NCBI GenBank assembly: GCA_030691735.1
Contig: JAUYDS010000117.1
Coordinates: 17,280-81,279 of the forward strand
Length of the DNA: 64,000 bases
Source of the DNA: Candidatus Aminicenantes bacterium
GTDB lineage: Bacteria; Acidobacteriota; Aminicenantia; Aminicenantales; UBA4085
Direction: 5' to 3'
Part shown: in pieces, positions 24,362 to 31,857 of the stretch
Position numbering within the stretch: position 1 is the first letter of the stretch
Layout: every line of letters starts with the position of its first letter
Translations under genes and position numbers: made by a program
Notes under the pieces: model-generated
Told to the model about the DNA's origin: nothing
Databases searched by the model: none
What the model saw: the letters and a program-made list of their open reading frames with translations, nothing else

Positions 24362-26032
24362 ATGAGCGACGAGAGCAAGCCCCGGGCCTCTTGGCGGCCG
24401 ATCGAGGAGATTGCCAAAAAGCTGGGCATTCGTCCCGAGTGTCTGGAGAAATACGGCAACTTCAAAGCCAAGGTCGATCTCGGGCCATCGCCTGAAAGCG
24501 TCGGGGGCTTAGGCCGGCTCATCCTCGTCACGGCCATGACCCCCACGCCCTCCGGCGAAGGGAAGACGACGACGGCCATCGGCCTGACCGACGCCCTGAA
24601 CCGGCTCGGCCGGAAGGCCGCGGCGGCCCTGCGTGAGCCGTCTTTGGGCCCCGTCTTCGGCATGAAGGGCGGGGCGACGGGGGGCGGAAAGGCTCACGTC
24701 GTTCCCAGCGACGACATCAACCTCCATTTCACGGGCGACATCCATGCCATCACTTCGGCCAACAATCTTCTAGCGGCCATGGTCGATAACCATGTCCAGT
24801 TCGAGCCGTCCTGCGGCCTTCTCGACGCCAAGAACGTCACTTGGAGGCGCGTTTTGGATATGAACGACCGGTCCCTACGGAACGTCATCTCCGGCATCGG
24901 AGAGACGTTCAACGGAATCGCGCTGGAGACGGGTTTTGATATCACCGCCGCCTCCGAGATCATGGCCATTTTTTGCCTGGCTCATGACCTCAAGGACCTC
25001 AAGGACCGGCTCGGCCGCATCCAGATCGGATACGCGTCCGACGGGAAGCCCGTCACGGCCGCCCAGGTCAAGGCCCAGGGCGCCATGGCCGCCCTGCTCA
25101 AGGACGCCATCCGGCCCAACCTCGTCCAGACCCGGGAGGGCTCGCCGGCCTTCATCCACGGCGGTCCGTTCGCCAACATCGCCCACGGCACGAACTCCGT
25201 GATCGCGACGAATATGGCCTTGCGTTTGGCCGATTTCGTGGTCACGGAATGCGGGTTCGCCTCCGATCTCGGCGCCGAGAAGTTCTTCGATATCGTCGTC
25301 CGGACGGGCGCCGTTCCCCCGCCTTCGGCCGTGGTCATCGTGGCTACCCTCCGCTCGCTCAAGTTCCACGGCGGGGTCAAACTGGAAGCGCTGAACGCGG
25401 AGAATACGGAGGCGATCGCCAAGGGATTCGAGAACCTCCAGAAGCACGTCGAGATCATCCGGCTCTTCGGCCTCCCCCCGGTCGTGGCCTTGAACAAATT
25501 CCCCGCGGACACGGAGAAAGAAGAGCGGCTCTTCGCCGATCTCTGCCGAAGGGAGAATGTCCGGTTCGCTCCGAGCGACGTCTTCGGCCGGGGAGGAGAG
25601 GGCGGCCTGGCCCTGGGAGAGGAAGTTCTCCGGGCGATCGAGCACGATCCCCGGGATTTCAGGTTCCTCTATCCGCTCGACACGCCGCTGGCCGACAAGA
25701 TCGAGACGATCGCCACGAAGATCTACGGCGCCGGCCGCGTCGCCCTCGAGGCCAAGGCCAGGCGGAAGCTCCAGAAATACGAGAGCGACGGCTTCGGCCG
25801 GTTCCCGGTCTGTATCGCCAAGACCCAGTATTCGCTCTCCGCCAACGCCAAGGCCCTCGGCCGACCGCGCGACTTCACGGTGACCGTCACGGACGCGTCG
25901 CTCAGCGCGGGCGCCGGCTTCGTGGTCGCCATGTGCGGCGAGATCATGACCATGCCCGGCCTGCCCAAGGTCCCCGCCGCCGAGAGGATCGACGTCACGG
26001 ACGACGGCGAGATCATGGGCATCCTGGGATAA
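24362..26032 (+). CDS. fhs: formate--tetrahydrofolate ligase
   Basis: Start at ATG 24362 (MSDESKPRASWRPIEEIAKKLGI..), since the ORF-track N-terminal extension has no counterpart in FTHFS; RBS gggaggg upstream. Diagnostic P-loop PTPSGEGKTTTAIGL. Confidence 0.85.
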   Translation: MSDESKPRASWRPIEEIAKKLGIRPECLEKYGNFKAKVDLGPSPESVGGLGRLILVTAMTPTPSGEGKTTTAIGLTDALNRLGRKAAAALREPSLGPVFGMKGGATGGGKAHVVPSDDINLHFTGDIHAITSANNLLAAMVDNHVQFEPSCGLLDAKNVTWRRVLDMNDRSLRNVISGIGETFNGIALETGFDITAASEIMAIFCLAHDLKDLKDRLGRIQIGYASDGKPVTAAQVKAQGAMAALLKDAIRPNLVQTREGSPAFIHGGPFANIAHGTNSVIATNMALRLADFVVTECGFASDLGAEKFFDIVVRTGAVPPPSAVVIVATLRSLKFHGGVKLEALNAENTEAIAKGFENLQKHVEIIRLFGLPPVVALNKFPADTEKEERLFADLCRRENVRFAPSDVFGRGGEGGLALGEEVLRAIEHDPRDFRFLYPLDTPLADKIETIATKIYGAGRVALEAKARRKLQKYESDGFGRFPVCIAKTQYSLSANAKALGRPRDFTVTVTDASLSAGAGFVVAMCGEIMTMPGLPKVPAAERIDVTDDGEIMGILG

Positions 26033-26183
26033 TGACGAATTTACAGCGCTACCCAATTGTGATACAAAATGGGTGATTTGCATGCCGGAAACGAGGAAAT
26101 CGGGGACCATGGGACAAGACCGGGCCGGAAAGCGTCTATAGTCATGTGGGGATGCCGATGAGAAGGAATGATCAGGAGGAAGC

Positions 26184-27266
26184 ATGAAAGAAGACGAAAG
26201 CGATCAAAAGCAGACAGCGAAGAACAAGGCCATCGAAGCCGCGGTCTCGCAAATCGAGAAGCAGTTCGGCAAGGGCTCAGTGATGAAACTGGGGCAGAAA
26301 GAAGCCGCGGCGAAAATCCCGGCCATTCCTACCGGCTCCATCTCGTTCGACCTGGCGCTCGGGATCGGCGGCTTTCCGCGCGGCCGCGTCATCGAGGTCT
26401 TCGGCCCGGAGGCGACCGGCAAGACGACCCTGGCCCTCCATGTCATCGCCGAAGCTCAGAAGCTCGGAGGGCAGGCGGCCTTCATCGACGCGGAGCACGC
26501 CATGGACCCGCCCTATGCCGCCAAGGTCGGCGTCGATATCGACAACCTCCTCATCTCCCAGCCGGATTGGGGCGAACAGGCCCTCGAGATCGCCGAGGTC
26601 CTGGTTCGGAGCGGGGCCGTGGACGTCATCGTCATCGATTCCGTGGCCGCGCTCGTTCCCAAGGCCGAACTCGAGGGGGAGATGGGCGACGCCCATATGG
26701 GCCTCCAGGCCCGCCTGATGTCGCAGGCGCTGCGGAAGCTGACGGCCATCGTCGCCCGTTCCAAGACCTGCTTCATCTTCATCAACCAGATCCGGGAGAA
26801 GATCGGCTTTTTCCTGGGCAACCCCGAGACGACGACGGGCGGCCGCGCCCTCAAATTCTACGCTTCGCTGCGGATCGATGTGCGGCGGATGACGGCCATC
26901 AAGGAAGGCGATAGCGTCATCGGCAATCGGGTCAAGGTCAAGATCGTCAAGAACAAGATGGCCCCGCCGTTCAAGGAAGCCCAGTTCGACATCATCTACG
27001 GCGAGGGCATTTCCCGGGAAGGGGACCTCGTCGACTGCGGTCTGGAATACGGCCTCATCGAGAAGACGGGGACGTGGTATTCGTACAAGGGAGAACGGGT
27101 CGGGCAGGGCCGGGAGAACGTCAAGAAGCTCCTCAAGGAGAACAAGGACCTGGCCGCTGAGCTGAACTTAGAGCTCCGGAAGAGGGTCGGCTTGGCGGCC
27201 GAACCGGCCGCGTTCGATAAGCCGGAAAAAGAACTCGAAAAGCCGACCGAAAAGAAATCCAGATAA
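26184..27266 (+). CDS. recA: recombinase RecA
   Basis: 360 aa; Walker [13 protein letters not shown], loop L1/L2 regions and the conserved RecA core throughout. Confidence 0.9.
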
Positions 27267-27283
27267 AAAGATGGGAACATGCT

Positions 27284-27315
27284 CCGAATTCTCCTGAATT
27301 CGGTAGGCGTCCCCG
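27284..27315. repeat. degenerate copy of repeat family R (ccgaattctcctgAATTCGGTAGGCGTCCCCG) immediately upstream of the SOD-like gene RBS
   Basis: 24/32 identity to the 24086 copy, including the CCGAATT-N6-AATTCGG mini-palindrome. Confidence 0.4.
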
Positions 27316-27331
27316 TCTTAAGGAGAACAGA

Positions 27332-28018
27332 ATGATCAAAAGACGCGAGTTCTTAAAGGCGACGGGCGTCGGCGGCGCGGCCGTTTTCGCCGGCGCCGAT
27401 CCGCTCTCAGGGCCCGCTTTCGGGCAGGATGTTAAAACTCAAGCGTACGCGGCCAAGGATTACGCCAGGCTCTTGGGAACACCCGGCTTCAGCGACGCTC
27501 TCCTCAAGAACCATTTCACCCTCTACCAGGGCTATGTCACGAACACGAACAAGGTTCTGGACGCGCTGGCCCAGATGCTCAAGGACGGGAAAACGGCCGC
27601 ACCCGAATTCGCCGAGCTCCGGCGGCGGCTCGGCTGGGAGTTCGACGGGATGCGCCTCCACGAGCTCTATTTCGAAAATCTGGGCGGAAAAAACGGGATC
27701 GACGCGGGCGGAAAACTGGCCAAAAAGATCACCGAGGATTTCGGCGGGTTCGAACCCTGGCAGAAGGATTTCAGGGCCGTGGGAGCGATGCGGGGAATCG
27801 GCTGGGCCGTCCTCTACCAGGATCCCGCGACCGGCCGGCTCATCGACTTCTGGATCAATGAGCACGACGGCGGTCATCCGGCGGGAGGCCGGCCTCTCCT
27901 GGTCATGGACGTCTTCGAGCACGCTTACATGATCGATTACGGGCTGAAAAAGGCGGACTATATCGAAGCGTTCTTCAAGGCCGTCGATTGGACGGCCGCC
28001 GAAGCGCGGTTGGCCTGA
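27332..28018 (+). CDS. Fe/Mn superoxide dismutase family protein with Tat signal peptide
   Basis: 228 aa; twin-arginine signal (KRREFLKATGVGGAAVFAGA); SOD C-terminal signature D.FEHAYMIDYG (compare D.WEHAYY.DY.N). The N-terminal His ligands are not obvious, so it may be a divergent SOD-like protein. Confidence 0.6.
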   Translation: MIKRREFLKATGVGGAAVFAGADPLSGPAFGQDVKTQAYAAKDYARLLGTPGFSDALLKNHFTLYQGYVTNTNKVLDALAQMLKDGKTAAPEFAELRRRLGWEFDGMRLHELYFENLGGKNGIDAGGKLAKKITEDFGGFEPWQKDFRAVGAMRGIGWAVLYQDPATGRLIDFWINEHDGGHPAGGRPLLVMDVFEHAYMIDYGLKKADYIEAFFKAVDWTAAEARLA

Positions 28019-28080
28019 TCTATGGTTAAAGCGATAAATATCCTTGTACGAGCGCCCAAGGGAAAAGCCGCGAATATAAT

Positions 28081-28250
28081 CCCCCCCCACCCCCCTTTAG
28101 CAAAGGGGGGGCTTGCTTTCCCTCCTTTCCTAAAGGGTAGGCGTGCTTCCCCCCCTTTCCTAAAGGGGGGGCTTGCTTTCCCCCCTTTAGCAAAGGGGGG
28201 GCTCGCTTTCCCCCCTTTACTAAAGGGGGGAGAAGGGGGGATTAGCCCCG
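28081..28250. repeat. tandem array of five about 30-nt GC-clamped hairpin units (C6-7 TTT NNN AAA G6-7 plus cttgctttc linker), preceded by a poly-C tract
   Basis: Units at about 28090, 28121, 28150, 28181, 28211: cccccctttagcaaaggggggg cttgctttc / cctcctttcctaaagggtagg cgtgcttc / ccccccctttcctaaaggggggg cttgctttc / ccccctttagcaaaggggggg ctcgctttc / ccccctttactaaagggggg agaagggggg. No spacers, so not CRISPR. Confidence 0.7.
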
Positions 28251-28308
28251 TCGCTCCCCGCGATGATGCATTGTTTCCAGCCTCCAGGTTCTTAAAAGGG
28301 CGGCGACC

Positions 28309-29373
28309 ATGACGGACTCAGAGAGCAAGCGGTCGATCAAAGCGGGGCTTTCCCCCGGGAGCCTGATCCATGTCGGCGAGAGAATGGTCGAGAAGGTCCG
28401 GATCACGGTCATCGATTATGACGCCGACAATATCTTCGAGAAAGAGGTCGAGACGGTCGAGGAATGTTTTCGTTTTCGGGAAACGTCCACCGTGACCTGG
28501 ATCAACATCGACGGCATCCACGATGCCGCCGTCGTCGAAAAGCTCGGCACGTACTTCGGCCTGCACCCCCTCATCCTCGAGGACATCATGACCACGTCCC
28601 AGCGGCCGAAGATGGAGGACCTCGGCGACGCCGCTTATGTCGTCCTGAAAATGATCGAATACGGGACGGACTGTTCGGACGTCGTCACCGAGCAGATGAG
28701 CCTCATTTTCGGCCGGAACTTCGTCCTCACCTTCCAGGAGCGGCCCGGCGACACCTTTGACCCCGTCCGGGAGCGGATCCGCAAGGGCAAAGGCCGGATC
28801 CGGAAGATGGGCCCGGACTACCTGGCTTACGCCCTCATCGACGCCGTCGTCGACGACTACTTCATCGTCCTCGAGCGGATGGGCGAGCAGATCGAGGAGA
28901 TCGAGGACGAGCTTGTCGCCGACCCGAAAAAGACGACCCTGAACGAGATCCACGCCATGAAACGGCAAATGATCTTTCTCCGCAAATCGGCTTGGCCCAT
29001 GCGCGAGCTCATCAGCCGGTTGGAGCGGGCGGAATCGCCGCTCATCCAGAAGACGACCGGGATCTTCCTCCGCGACGTCTACGACCACACGATCCAGATC
29101 ATCGACAACATCGAGACCTTCCGCGACATGCTCTCCGGCATGCTCGACATGTACCTCTCGAGCGTCAGCAACCGGATGAACGAGGTCATGAAGGTCCTGA
29201 CGATCATCGGCACGATCTTCATCCCCCTGACGTTCCTGGTCGGCGTGTATGGGATGAACTTCAAGTTCATGCCCGAGCTCGAGTGGCGCGGGAGCTATTT
29301 TGTGGTCTGGGGGGTGATGATCGCCGTCGCCGTCTTTCTGGTGGCTTATTTCAGGCGAAAGAAATGGCTTTAG
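28309..29373 (+). CDS. corA: magnesium/cobalt transporter CorA
   Basis: 354 aa; cytoplasmic domain plus two C-terminal TM helices with the YGMNF signature (GVYGMNFKFMPEL). Confidence 0.85.
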   Translation: MTDSESKRSIKAGLSPGSLIHVGERMVEKVRITVIDYDADNIFEKEVETVEECFRFRETSTVTWINIDGIHDAAVVEKLGTYFGLHPLILEDIMTTSQRPKMEDLGDAAYVVLKMIEYGTDCSDVVTEQMSLIFGRNFVLTFQERPGDTFDPVRERIRKGKGRIRKMGPDYLAYALIDAVVDDYFIVLERMGEQIEEIEDELVADPKKTTLNEIHAMKRQMIFLRKSAWPMRELISRLERAESPLIQKTTGIFLRDVYDHTIQIIDNIETFRDMLSGMLDMYLSSVSNRMNEVMKVLTIIGTIFIPLTFLVGVYGMNFKFMPELEWRGSYFVVWGVMIAVAVFLVAYFRRKKWL

Positions 29374-29377
29374 ATCG

Positions 29378-29405
29378 AAGGCGCCCTCGTCGGGGCGCCT
29401 TTTGG
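29378..29405 (+). terminator. candidate rho-independent terminator after corA
   Basis: aaggcgccc-tcgt-cggggcgcctt hairpin followed by TTTT (ggcgccttttgg). Confidence 0.45.
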
Positions 29406-29424
29406 TTGAAGGAGAGGGCATATC

Positions 29425-29685
29425 ATGAAAAGTAGAACCGTCTTGATCCTTATCCTGATCGCGCTTTTCGCGGTCCTGCTCATCCAGAATTCAGAACTGG
29501 CCACGCTGCGGTTCTTTTTCTGGCCGATCTACGCCCCGCAGTTTATCCTGGTCTTCTTCATCTTCTTGATCGGATTTCTGGTCGGCTTCCTGGCGGCGAA
29601 GAGCAGTCGGAAAAAGGACGGGAAAAAAGAGGAACACGTCCCTCCGCCGGCGTCCCATCAGCCGCCGGCGAAACCGCAGCCATGA
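29425..29685 (+). CDS. small inner-membrane protein, LapA/DUF1049-like
   Basis: 86 aa, two TM segments (LILILIALFAVLLIQN ... FILVFFIFLIGFLVGFLAA) then a basic/Pro-rich tail; good RBS (gaaggagagggcatatcATG). Confidence 0.45.
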   Translation: MKSRTVLILILIALFAVLLIQNSELATLRFFFWPIYAPQFILVFFIFLIGFLVGFLAAKSSRKKDGKKEEHVPPPASHQPPAKPQP

Positions 29686-30275
29686 GAGCGGTTTTCAAGC
29701 ACCTCAAGACGTTCATTCTTCGGGGATTCCTGGCCATCATCCCCCTCGCCTTGTCTTTTATCGTCCTGCGCTTTTTCTATCTGGCCGTGGACCAGCGGGT
29801 CGCCCACATCATCGAGAAATGGATCGGGTTCAACGTCCCCGGCCTGGGGTTCGTCCTGGTCCTGGTGATTCTCTACCTGCTCGGGCTGGCCGCAAGCAAT
29901 TGGGCTGGCCGCGGATTCTTGAGCATGGTCGAGCGCATCTCGATGCGCATCCCGCTCGTCAAGACCATCTATCCCCTCGGCAAACAGATCGGAGCGGCCA
30001 TGGCCGTCCCCGAAAAAAATGCTTTTAAAAGAGTCGTGTTGGTGGAGCATTTCCGGCCCGGAGTCTGGTCGATCGGCTTCGTCACCGGCCATCTCGACGA
30101 TCCGCGGACCGGCGAGCGGCTCTTGAAGCTCTTCGTCCCCCAAGGCCCCAATCCGACGTCGGGATTCATGATCATCGTCAAAGAACCCCAGGTCCGGGAG
30201 ATCGGATGGAGCGTCGCGGAGGCGATGAACGCCGTGATCTCCGGCGGCCTATCCGGCCCCGATAAACTCGATTGA
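29682..30275 (+). CDS. DUF502 family membrane protein
   Basis: 197 aa; N-terminal TM region then the conserved DUF502 body (..VKTIYPLGKQI...F.RVVLVE......IGFVTG...). Overlaps the preceding small gene by 4 nt. Confidence 0.55.
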   Translation: MRAVFKHLKTFILRGFLAIIPLALSFIVLRFFYLAVDQRVAHIIEKWIGFNVPGLGFVLVLVILYLLGLAASNWAGRGFLSMVERISMRIPLVKTIYPLGKQIGAAMAVPEKNAFKRVVLVEHFRPGVWSIGFVTGHLDDPRTGERLLKLFVPQGPNPTSGFMIIVKEPQVREIGWSVAEAMNAVISGGLSGPDKLD

Positions 30276-30297
30276 ACGGGGAGGTCCCGAAGGCTGT

Positions 30298-30395
30298 GGG
30301 GTCGCGTCTACACTTTCCACTTTCTCCTGCCGATCAAGCTGGATCCGAATTCATCTGGAAGAAAGTGGAAAGTGTAGACGCGACCCCGGCCTTTT
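30298..30395 (+). terminator. long perfect hairpin (28-bp stem, 34-nt loop) followed by TTTT; possible terminator for the DUF502 operon
   Basis: ggggtcgcgtctacactttccactttct (30298-30325) pairs perfectly with agaaagtggaaagtgtagacgcgacccc (30360-30387), then ggccTTTTctc. Located between convergent genes. Confidence 0.4.
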
Positions 30396-30426
30396 CTCAA
30401 ACTGAATTCGGTATGTGTCTGCGAAT
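30394..30426. repeat. repeat family R copy (ttctcaaactgAATTCGGTATGTGTCTGCGAAT) in the convergent intergenic region
   Basis: Complete 23-nt unit AATTCGGTATGTGTCTGCGAATg, identical in its core to the 24086 and 53341 copies. Confidence 0.5.
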
Positions 30427-30435
30427 GATCCCGGT

Positions 30436-31857
30436 CTATTCCTCATCCAGCTTGACGTTTCCCTGGTACATGGTCACGCCGTGCGGCGTCTTGCCCGAGA
30501 CCATGGCCGTGGATTTGGTGAAGAGCGGGTCGTCGTGGATGGCTTTGAGATATTCGTCGCGGAAGCGGGGATGGGTGATGTTGGCGATCGCCAACGCCTT
30601 TTCGCCGGCGGTCAGGCCGCGAACGTCGGCGATGCCGTACTCGGTGACGATGACCACGCCGTCGTACGAGGATGCGGTCAAACTCACCCCGGGCGGGTGG
30701 ACCATGGCGATCTTCGACTCGCCTTTTCCGGTGATGCTTTTCATGGTGATGATGGGCACGCCGTAGGCCGGATCGTTCAGGGCCCGGACGAAATCCGGCT
30801 GGCCGCCGACCCCGCTGTAATACCGGCGGGCGTCGACGAAATCGGCCCAGACGTTGCCGAGGAGGTCGACTCCCATAGCCGTGTTGATCGCGATGAAGGG
30901 GCTGTTCTTCCGGATGACCTCCTCGGAATTGGTCACGGCGCAGGGCCGCATCTGGATGCCCGCCCGCATGTGGACGTATTCGTAGAGCTCTTTGGAGCCC
31001 ATGATGAGGGCGGTCGTGCTGTAGCCCATGTCCTGTTTCTTCTTCCGGTTCGTGACGATCCCCGCTTTCTGGAGGGTCATCAATCCGTCGCCGTAGAGCT
31101 CCGTCTGGATGCCGAGGTCCCGGTAGTTCGCCTCTTTGATGATCCCGACGACCGCGTCGGGGATCCGGCCGATGCCGACCTGCAGCGTTGCGCCGTCGAC
31201 GATGAAATATTTGGCGATGAGCTCCCCGATCCGCTTCTCGGCGGCGGGGAGGTTGTCGAAGTCCGGGGCCGGGAAATCATAGACGGGTTTGACCCGGTCG
31301 TCGTCGACGAGGAAATCGATGGATTGGGCGTCGACGATGCTCTGCCCCTGAGTGAACGGCATGCTGAAATCCATTTCGGCGATGACGCACTTGGCCTGGT
31401 CGATGGCGGTATGGATGGCTTCGACGGACAATCCCAAGCTGTATTCGCCGGTGATCTCGTGAGGCCGGATCTTGACGATGGCGATATCGGGTTCGTACTC
31501 CCGGCCCTTGGCGATGAGGCTGTCGATATTGGCCAGCGTGCAGGGCAGATAATAGGCGCGCCCCTCGTTGGCGGCTTTGCGGACATCGCCCGTGGAAAAG
31601 ATGGAATAGGCCAGGATCCGGTCCTGCAGCCCTTTTTCGACGTAGGGCACCGGTCCTTGAAGCAGGAGGTGGACCATCCGGATGAAGGGGAGCTTTGGCT
31701 GGCCGGCCTTGATCGCAGCGGTCAGGAAGTCGAGACAGGCCGTCGGCGTGGCGGCGTTCGAGCCGAGGTAGCAGGTGATCGTCTCCTTGTGGCGGAAATC
31801 ACGGGAGATGACCTCGGCCACATCTTCGAGCTTGATGACGGCGGGTTGATAATGCAT
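30436..31857 (-). CDS. acetyl-CoA hydrolase/transferase family protein (4-hydroxybutyrate / succinyl-CoA:acetate CoA-transferase-like)
   Basis: 473 aa with normal composition; the plus-strand overlapping ORF 30415..31863 is Gly/Asp/Arg-rich antisense. N- and C-terminal AcetylCoA_hydro/transf domains. Confidence 0.7.
   Translation of the reverse strand: MHYQPAVIKLEDVAEVISRDFRHKETITCYLGSNAATPTACLDFLTAAIKAGQPKLPFIRMVHLLLQGPVPYVEKGLQDRILAYSIFSTGDVRKAANEGRAYYLPCTLANIDSLIAKGREYEPDIAIVKIRPHEITGEYSLGLSVEAIHTAIDQAKCVIAEMDFSMPFTQGQSIVDAQSIDFLVDDDRVKPVYDFPAPDFDNLPAAEKRIGELIAKYFIVDGATLQVGIGRIPDAVVGIIKEANYRDLGIQTELYGDGLMTLQKAGIVTNRKKKQDMGYSTTALIMGSKELYEYVHMRAGIQMRPCAVTNSEEVIRKNSPFIAINTAMGVDLLGNVWADFVDARRYYSGVGGQPDFVRALNDPAYGVPIITMKSITGKGESKIAMVHPPGVSLTASSYDGVVIVTEYGIADVRGLTAGEKALAIANITHPRFRDEYLKAIHDDPLFTKSTAMVSGKTPHGVTMYQGNVKLDEE

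Follow-up and report, generated by a model that had tools for sequence, protein, structure and literature searches.

The element that is described here is a tandem array of short hairpins in the spacer between a superoxide dismutase (SOD)-like gene and the transporter gene corA of a Candidatus Aminicenantes bacterium. The stretch of DNA that was analyzed, called the window in the following, covers 64,000 nucleotides (contig JAUYDS010000117.1 of assembly GCA_030691735.1, positions 17,280 to 81,279). The closest known kind of element is the BoxC/PIT/TMECO repeat of Escherichia coli. TMECO repeats follow the pattern CCCTCNCCC-N3-6-GGGNGAGGG-N3(TTA or CCG)-GGGNGAGGG and are intergenic and highly conserved, with 23 copies in strain K-12 (Holder et al. 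2015, PMC4666352). Five TMECO pairs take on an inverted configuration, in which each pair joins two subtypes, and triplex formation has been shown in vitro. TMECO loci are more rearranged between strains, and no link to a mobile element was found (PMC4666352). As far as the introduction of that paper summarizes it, earlier work found BoxC/PIT to be without promoter or terminator activity.

Two other systems are drawn into the comparison. One is formed by the REP/REPIN repeats and their RAYT transposases, and the other is I-Bth0305I, a Vsr-like “EDxHD” free-standing homing endonuclease whose fold superfamily includes Vsr (PMC3239194). The array in the window is probably a gene-less, tandemly expanded, and lineage-specific copy of a widespread mosaic palindromic repeat family that is tied to genes of the DUF559 family.

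The array covers positions 28078 to 28243 of the window and consists of five 30-nt units, four of which form strong C6-7TTT/AAAG6-7 hairpins, and unit 2 is decayed. Tandem Repeats Finder places it at 28090 to 28230 (period 30, 4.7 copies, 82% matches, score 198), and it is by far the top-scoring tandem repeat of the window. In the repeat search, the start-to-start spacings of the units are exactly 30, 30, and 30 nt. The core CCCCCTTTNNNAAAGGGGG occurs in four copies without a mismatch, all within the array, where 0.03 are expected from shuffles; outside of the array, no copy was found in the window at up to two mismatches. When each unit is folded alone as RNA, units 1, 3, 4, and 5 form hairpins of 9 to 10 bp (−14.5 to −17.8 kcal/mol). 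The hairpin of unit 2 (28120–28141, CCCTCC...GGGTAGG) reaches −5.8 kcal/mol, and shuffles fold as well. Taken as a whole, the SOD-corA spacer has a far stronger predicted structure than its shuffles, whichever strand is folded (z −5.0 and −5.5). In the minimum-energy fold the array units pair with one another, and by this modeling five separate hairpins are one among several possible folding states.

The two termini of the array are distinct, with AAT-C8-A on the left (28078–28089) and AGAA-G6-ATT on the right (28231–28243). The layout can be written as L-H-H-H-R, in which the left (L) end spans 28078 to 28111 and the right (R) end 28210 to 28243. In the single-stranded DNA fold, the outer C-run of the L end pairs with the outer G-run of the R end (−58.3 kcal/mol, z −5.3). 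An earlier sequence-only reading of this DNA, which was made by a model from the letters alone, had the anatomy right but overlooked these two ends. Its five hairpin units at a period of 29 to 31 nt stand as five units at a 30-nt spacing, with the qualification that the hairpin of unit 2 is decayed. The single common linker that it gave is incorrect, as the linkers differ between units and read CTTGCTTT, CGTGCTTC, CTTGCTTT, and CTCGCTTT in order. The placement between the stop of the SOD-like gene (28018) and the start of corA (28309) is confirmed. So is its rejection of a clustered regularly interspaced short palindromic repeat (CRISPR) array, which requires unique spacers of about 25 to 40 nt and is ruled out by the 8-nt near-identical linkers. 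A coding reading is ruled out as well, since the open reading frame (ORF) with PPLAKGG repeats at 28022 to 28312, already judged almost certainly noncoding, arises by chance when the repeat is read in one frame.

The sequence-only reading had further suggested searching for the unit elsewhere, and this check turned out to be decisive. The same element family occurs in many phyla. One genome per species was scanned for two hairpins of the window type that lie 5 to 30 nt apart, and at least 120 stretches from many bacterial phyla were found. According to the record titles, the hosts belong to the Desulfobacterota, Nitrospirae, Gamma-, Beta-, and Alphaproteobacteria, Ignavibacteria, Chloroflexota, Omnitrophota, Zixibacteria, Patescibacteria, Planctomycetota, Verrucomicrobia, and Aminicenantes, among others. 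The family is also present in cultured isolates (Thiothrix caldifontis, Chromatium okenii, Thiorhodococcus, and Nitrosomonas supralitoralis). Among 2.9 million viral contigs, the family turned up in only 12 stretches. Across many phyla, the genes that adjoin the members are unrelated and all gene-orientation contexts occur, and a rough ORF heuristic gives no consistent orientation to the neighboring genes. Several copies are present per genome, as in the metagenome-assembled genome (MAG) KR13_N1.mb.39 with at least six loci. A true contig end lies within 150 nt for 17 of the 120 listed stretches, as is expected for repeats that break assemblies.

The family is built from three modules, namely an outer run AAATC5-6, a hairpin C5-6TTT-N3-AAAG5-6, and a mirror outer run G5-6ATTT. 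The L end reads AAATC5-6-N2-4-C5-6TTT-N3-AAAG5-6, and the R end is its reverse complement, C5-6TTT-N3-AAAG5-6-N2-4-G5-6ATTT. The usual gene-less layout is L-spacer-R (89 elements across the 120 loci listed, median length 78 nt). Other arrangements are one hairpin enclosed by the outer runs, an R end and then an L end across a spacer of 15 to 20 nt, solo ends, and tandem arrays. Arrays of hairpin plus linker with periods of about 30 to 45 nt are common both beside cassettes, which are described below, and in short elements (L057, L075, L110, L117, L120, L135, L158, and L164). The arrays of L093, a locus from another Candidatus Aminicenantes MAG, flank a DUF559 cassette, and after their hairpins comes AAAGCAAG, which is the window linker CTTGCTTT in reverse complement. 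Of 440 ends, 254 have C-G as the outermost hairpin pair, 175 have T-A, and 11 have a mismatch there. Compensated variants in which both arms are altered together are found as well; the downstream hairpin of the cassette group, for instance, reads CCCCTCTTT...AAAGAGGGG (CCCCTC/GAGGGG) or CCTCCC/GGGAGG. Judged from its base pairs, the family hairpin is maintained.

A subfamily of the L-R form in Syntrophobacterales and other deltaproteobacterial MAGs has a common spacer that is centered on GGAATTCC (ACTTTAAnAGGAATTCCnTnTAGTT), with members at L016, L022, L029, L032, L036, L037, L051, and L061. Its ends are of two subtypes, G5 with an ATTTA loop and G6 with a TA loop, which is reminiscent of the pairing of type A and type B TMECO in E. 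coli. In L093, a second and unrelated tandem repeat of GTCGTCCCCCAGCAGCAAGAA-like units lies in the region 250 to 900, upstream of the DUF559 cassette and amid hairpin elements. Many spurious “PPFxKGG” ORFs are called in the arrays of this locus on both strands.

At the 120 listed loci, ORF clustering revealed no transposase or other recurrent gene nearby; the neighbor families that recur are histidine kinases/response regulators, ABC ATPases, and class I aminoacyl-tRNA synthetases. By tblastn, 3 of these 120 repeat-selected loci (L041, L093, and L117) contain a DUF559-type ORF, and each of the three ORFs is bracketed by the repeat. The ORFs of L093 and L117 belong to DUF559 (PF04480, Pfam E ~1e-35), and the ORF of L041 is 60% identical to the DUF559 protein of L093. 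The association was then approached in reverse: metagenome contigs were searched with an alignment of the three proteins, and the best 80 loci were kept by protein alone. The repeat motif lies within 150 nt of the DUF559 gene in 73 of these 80 protein-selected loci. Among the 77 loci with enough flanking sequence, the R end is found upstream of the gene in 46 and the L end downstream in 31, at median distances of about 14 nt. The motif density is 4.9/kb beside the DUF559 gene vs 0.27/kb in the rest of the same loci, and it is zero in 26 kb of loci that carry relatives of the window's CorA.

In its commonest form the unit consists of an R end, a DUF559 gene of about 115 codons, and an inverted L end, which together make up a cassette of about 435 bp. 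In 19 printed examples, the R end lies about 3 to 40 nt (commonly less than 15 nt) from the DUF559 start codon, and the distance from the stop codon to the L end is mostly no more than about 15 nt, with an overlap in several. Ten cassettes are 85 to 92% identical at the nucleotide level over only about 430 to 470 bp, and their flanks represent at least four unrelated contexts. The homology sets in a few bases ahead of the upstream hairpin and ends directly behind the downstream hairpin. By these boundaries, the DUF559 cassette is a discrete, portable unit. The encoded protein is a single domain of about 115 amino acids, and its nearest solved structure is the uncharacterized 3HRL.

The ends also meet the gene closely. 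In most printed examples of L126 to L205 (e.g., L140, L141, L161, and L191), the last G-run of the R end is located shortly upstream of the DUF559 start, at the position that is expected for a ribosome-binding site. At the other end of the gene, the L end often shares its first bases with the DUF559 stop codon (TAA-TCCCCC). Since the outer runs G5ATTT and AAATC5 are complementary across the gene, the ends of the mRNA could pair and hide the ribosome-binding site.

The array in the window carries ends of this kind. An nhmmer profile that was built solely from 75 ends flanking DUF559 genes matches the window L end at 28110 to 28075 on the minus strand (E = 1.2e-10, model positions 6–41) and the window R end at 28207 to 28239 on the plus strand (E = 2.9e-9, model positions 3–35). 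Beyond the array, the profile has no match in the window. Over 36 nt, the window L end shares 97% identity with the L end behind the DUF559 stop codon of L146. Like most of the listed family copies, the array is a gene-less derivative.

The array is also specific to its lineage. The CorA protein of the window has no exact match on record. CorA relatives at 84% identity (L123–L125) share the gene order FTHFS-recA-SOD-corA with a SOD-corA spacer of 126 nt, in which the family profile finds no significant match (best E 7.4). In the CorA relatives at 89% and 94% identity, corA follows recA after 29 to 35 nt, with neither a SOD gene nor an array. The array is thus absent from the corA locus in every relative recovered (84–94% CorA identity), so that 28078 to 28243 represents an insertion or expansion of about 165 nt in the lineage of the window. 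A metagenome scan for strain variants and unit-number polymorphism with a window-specific 23-mer from beside the array gave no match. The SOD-like gene between recA and corA is kept in the window and the 84% relatives and is missing in the closer 89% and 94% ones (window 26184–28308 compared with L121, L122, L123, and L125), which indicates that the locus was rearranged within a narrow clade. The best profile match of the 84% relatives (L123 3964–3982, likewise in L124 and L125) falls inside the SOD-corA spacer at AACTCCAACCCCCCTTAGTCAATTAGGGAAGG, which could be a decayed ancient repeat copy or chance.

In E. coli K-12, a DUF559 gene and a TMECO repeat are found at the same locus. The DUF559 gene at this locus is ycjD, and TMECO no. 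9 (1,351,204–1,351,239) follows 168 nt downstream; ycjD is not mentioned in PMC4666352. The gene is present in 3377 of 5426 complete E. coli genomes. In an evenly spaced sample of 60 genomes, which is confounded by phylogroup, 37 genomes with ycjD have 12 to 28 TMECO-like places (median ~19) and 23 genomes without it have 1 to 14 (median 3). Strains that lack ycjD carry the eefRABCD efflux operon at its site, which is therefore uninformative as an empty site. In phylogroups A, B1, and C, ycjD stands in place of the eef operon, and ST69 and ST182 appear to have gained it independently (PMC12817139). Three further features are visible at the K-12 locus (NC_000913.3, 1351200–1351830; L218): a partial BoxC-like motif spans the ycjD stop, a duplicated 3′-end fragment of ycjD precedes TMECO no. 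9, and a perfect 17-bp hairpin lies upstream of ycjD.

Table 1 Parts of the hairpin array and its neighboring genes in the window
Feature	Position	Strand	Properties
Left (L) end	28078..28111	+	AAT-C8-A-C6TTT-AGC-AAAG7; outer C-run, then the unit 1 hairpin (28090–28111), −15.8 kcal/mol
Linker 1, CTTGCTTT	28112..28119	+	Read from the sequence; in reverse complement (AAAGCAAG) it also stands behind a hairpin of L093 (Aminicenantes)
Unit 2, decayed hairpin CCCTCCTTTCCTAAAGGGTAGG and linker CGTGCTTC	28120..28149	+	−5.8 kcal/mol; end profile only E = 0.88
Unit 3, C7TTT-CCT-AAAG7 and linker CTTGCTTT	28149..28179	+	−17.8 kcal/mol; terminator-like; profile matches the hairpin part only
Unit 4, C6TTT-AGC-AAAG7 and linker CTCGCTTT	28180..28209	+	−15.8 kcal/mol; profile matches the hairpin part only, E = 4.8e-6
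Right (R) end	28210..28243	+	Unit 5 C6TTT-ACT-AAAG6, AGAA, outer G6-ATT; reverse complement in kind of the L end
Spurious 96-amino-acid ORF (PPLAKGGLAF...)	28022..28312	+	Made of the repeat read in one frame; absent from relatives without the array
Tat-signal Fe/Mn superoxide dismutase-like gene, upstream neighbor	27332..28018	+	Pfam Sod_Fe_C 3.9e-26, TAT_signal
corA Mg2+/Co2+ transporter gene, downstream neighbor	28309..29373	+	Pfam CorA 2e-72; thousands of homologs

One further structure was noticed downstream of corA. A near-perfect inverted repeat with about 33 bp per arm (GGCTGTGGGGTCGCGTCTACACTTTCCACTTTCT...AGAAAGTGGAAAGTGTAGACGCGACCCCGGCC) and a loop of about 29 nt, followed by TTTTCTC, occupies 30294 to 30393 of the window. 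It lies between a convergent DUF502 gene (ending at 30275) and an acetyl-CoA hydrolase-like gene on the minus strand (ending at 30436). Its fold reaches −79.7 kcal/mol (z −7.8), with sub-threshold matches to Rfam miRNA models on both strands. It probably serves as a long bidirectional terminator or stems from a palindromic insertion.

How the array came to lie in front of corA can be pictured as follows. A copy of the family would have arrived, or have been built up, in the SOD-corA spacer in the lineage of the window only. The three internal 30-nt units would stem from slipped-strand events or unequal recombination between hairpins that are complementary to themselves and to each other, a route that is inferred because arrays are common in the family. 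The DUF559 nuclease may recognize the hairpin, cruciform, or triplex-capable ends and may spread or maintain them in trans, as RAYT transposases do for REP/REPIN. A homing-type model, in which the DUF559 gene would have inserted at the center of an R-L palindrome, is also compatible. The array itself would most likely count as selfish repeat DNA rather than as a control element of corA. Any effect on SOD or corA, such as partial termination or protection of the 3′-end of the SOD mRNA, is probably incidental, and the four strong hairpins with their U-rich linkers on the coding strand could, by the predicted folds, terminate or pause some SOD transcripts.

Several observations weigh against the reading of the array as a gene-less offshoot of a DUF559-linked family. 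In the window, no DUF559 gene was found (tblastn with two DUF559 proteins, E ≤ 1e-3), nor is there a second copy of the repeat. The best 80 DUF559 loci were selected as relatives of three proteins that had come to light beside the repeat, and so the association holds for that DUF559 subfamily and not necessarily for all DUF559. The topology differs, as the outer runs lie outside in the window array and the L-R elements and next to the gene in the cassette; because of this “inside-out” arrangement, the window array is not a simple deletion derivative of the cassette. For the window locus, the search yielded no highly identical pair of an empty and a filled site. Neither a target-site duplication nor a conserved target is visible in the flanks of cassettes and short elements when these are aligned, and no clean pair of empty and filled sites was available there. 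The activity of the DUF559-subfamily nuclease on the repeat is entirely inferred. A cis effect of the array on corA may also exist.

The array ends 65 nt before the corA start. Among other ideas, the sequence-only reading had offered an attenuator or roadblock in the corA leader, and this framing is not supported. A dedicated cis-regulatory leader (attenuator, roadblock, or sensor) would suit the coding-strand position, the marked structure of the region, and the terminator-like units 1 and 3 on the plus strand. It is nevertheless highly improbable: the array is absent upstream of corA in all relatives recovered (84–94%), the closest of which have only 29 to 35 nt between recA and corA, and the same element lies beside unrelated genes in many phyla and in all orientations. 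There is no Rfam match at the gathering score, the Mg2+ riboswitch included. At a permissive threshold, Rfam yields only sub-threshold, composition-driven matches and no M-box riboswitch on 26000 to 31000, and 18 related loci have no match at the gathering threshold either. The analogous PIT/BoxC of E. coli is without terminator or promoter activity, as far as this is summarized in PMC4666352. Whatever its origin, the array might act on the SOD transcript, as tandem intrinsic-like terminators or as a 3′-end stabilizer, the role that is often given to REP. The four strong plus-strand hairpins are each followed by a pyrimidine- or U-rich linker of 8 to 9 nt, and the SOD stop immediately precedes the array; in the 84% relatives, another GC-rich palindrome occupies this place. 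A lax terminator scan of 27200 to 29500 finds seven terminator-like sites vs 2.7 expected, with four in the array. Units 1 and 3 are flagged on the plus strand with five T in eight, and this tract is broken by G and C. The sequence-only reading had denied U-tails altogether; the linker CUUGCUUUC does have five U in 8 to 9 nt, but its tract is indeed interrupted, which speaks against such a role. So do the inconsistent orientation of the family to neighboring genes (by the rough ORF heuristic) and the tested E. coli PIT, which is cited in PMC4666352, to the extent that it is described there, as lacking terminator activity. Such a role is somewhat unlikely, and it is compatible with the DUF559-linked origin as a secondary effect.

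Other explanations concern the origin of the array. The sequence-only reading had also offered a protein-binding array or non-B DNA, which pointed in the right direction; the architecture is triplex-like with three blocks and tied to a nuclease gene. No result specifically favors its further ideas of G4/i-motif-forming DNA and of a contingency locus. A BoxC/PIT-type non-B-DNA element could be spread by errors of host replication and recombination alone, with DUF559 as a passenger gene that happens to use the repeat as its ribosome-binding and terminator regions. This is consistent with the last G-run of the R end in ribosome-binding-site position, with the higher rearrangement of TMECO loci between E. 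coli strains (PMC4666352), with the rearranged recA-SOD-corA locus, and with the layout of both array ends, which is that of an intrastrand purine-motif triplex (C-stem, loop, G-stem, 1–4 nt, G-run) as in the TMECO of PMC4666352. Near-identical cassettes in unrelated contexts whose homology ends at the hairpins suggest, however, an element-specific process, and the conservation of end sequences across phyla is hard to explain otherwise. The higher number of TMECO-like copies in E. coli genomes with ycjD points the same way, although it is phylogenetically confounded. Both the host-driven spread and the passenger role of DUF559 are accordingly unlikely. A classical miniature inverted-repeat transposable element (MITE), which derives by deletion from an insertion sequence (IS) with a DDE transposase and is mobilized via its terminal inverted repeats, would share with the family the terminal inverted repeats (~33 nt here) and the small, noncoding, intergenic copies, several of which are dispersed in other genomes. 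Target-site duplications are not visible in the aligned flanks, a parent IS with a transposase was not seen, no transposase recurs near the 120 listed loci, and DUF559 is the only gene found bracketed by the ends, which makes a MITE very unlikely. The exact 30-nt period, the G/C runs of 6 to 8 nt, and the single copy in 64 kb would fit a neutral tandem duplication or a slippage-prone contingency locus that arose locally and is unrelated to sequences elsewhere. This is scarcely credible, as both termini match the independently built family profile (E ~1e-10 and 1e-9), which largely refutes it. Homologous arrays with the same linker are moreover present in another Aminicenantes genome (L093), and the G/C runs lie in neither a coding region nor a recognizable promoter.

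The local finding is ordinary, and the link to DUF559 is the interesting part. Locally the result is deflationary, as the “leader array” of corA is most likely selfish repeat DNA, and its annotation as a regulator or gene is therefore unwarranted. More widely, a cross-phylum repeat family is tied to a specific nuclease gene by the 73 of 80 loci, the portable cassettes, and the adjacency of ycjD and TMECO. The family also explains a common annotation artifact, the “hypothetical proteins” of the PPLxKGG type, and one cause of contig breaks in metagenome assemblies. In the literature searched, which was mostly without subscription journals, no paper links DUF559 (COG2852, PF04480, ycjD) to repeats, and nothing relevant was found there on the DNA motif or its pseudo-peptides. 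The association of DUF559 with the repeat appears undescribed. One paper lists DUF559 genes as overrepresented among predicted targets of inversion, in keeping with the flanking inverted repeats.

The BoxC/PIT repeats of E. coli have been unexplained since the 1990s, and the DUF559 family is very large; to our knowledge, neither the repeats nor the proteins have a known function. It is conceivable, as a tentative proposal, that BoxC/PIT-type repeats and the DUF559 family are two halves of one REP/RAYT-like, phylum-crossing replicator that is based on a PD-(D/E)XK nuclease. A cassette of about 0.4 kb would then carry the small Vsr-fold nuclease gene between hairpin-plus-run ends. The nuclease would recognize these structured ends and seed, spread, or destabilize the many gene-less copies, of which the window array would be one expanded offspring. 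The DUF559 link gives a directly testable hypothesis for both, and the test is easy in E. coli K-12.

Among the known systems, I-Bth0305I shares the nuclease fold superfamily with DUF559 and likewise is a small, selfish-looking gene in varied contexts. The DUF559 cassette would also sit at the center of a would-be R-L palindrome, as a homing insertion does. In contrast to I-Bth0305I, the DUF559 protein is without a NUMOD/helix-turn-helix DNA-binding region, it is not located in an intron or intein, and no cleavage target is known.

The closest functional analogy, by comparison of architecture, is REP/REPIN-RAYT. As far as the sources describe these systems, they share with the family the short GC-rich palindromes, the inverted doublets with a spacer, the BIME-like mosaic clusters, and the intergenic location, as well as a single small gene that is flanked on both sides by its associated repeat alongside many gene-less copies. 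An inverted palindrome doublet with a spacer of the REP/REPIN type is present in the window array. The analogy fails on the defining gene and the sequence tag. The flanked gene encodes a DUF559 protein of the PD-(D/E)XK/Vsr fold (PF04480, E 1e-35) and not a Y1 HUH RAYT of the IS200/IS605-like type, and the GTAG/CGTC tag is absent, with family ends that read AAATC5-6 and G5-6ATTT. The window-family sequence is furthermore common across phyla, whereas REP is described as lineage-specific and mostly vertically inherited.

BoxC/PIT/TMECO remains the nearest relative in kind. Both elements are built from three blocks, which in TMECO are a C-stem, a loop of 3 to 6 nt, a G-stem, a loop of about 3 nt (often TTA), and a G-run, and in the window family C5-6TTT-N3-AAAG5-6-N1-4-G5-6ATTT, with TTA often as the second loop of the R ends. 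Both ends of the window array have this triplex-capable layout: the R end reads C6TTT-ACT-AAAG6-AGAA-G6ATT and the L end, on the minus strand, C6TTT-GCT-AAAG6-T-G8ATT. Read from the sequence, the third block G5ATT would be triad-compatible with AAAG5 (G.G-C, A.A-T, and T.A-T) in a putative triplex. Both elements are scattered over intergenic DNA with strong conservation inside a genome, and both often form inverted pairs of two subtypes (A and B in TMECO, a “5-type” and a “6-type” in the family) with spacers of 16 to 27 nt. Neither has an assigned function, and TMECO is tied to locus instability. The differences are that the window-family sequence falls outside of the TMECO pattern and has a much wider taxonomic spread, that the internal units 2 to 4 of the window are hairpins without a third block, and that for TMECO an association with a nuclease gene or any mobile element is explicitly denied (PMC4666352). 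Because its uninterrupted C/G runs are followed by TTT/AAA, the window array is an analog of TMECO and not a member. It is a BoxC/REP-like mosaic palindromic repeat that is new in its sequence, its very wide taxonomic range, and its tandem expansion.

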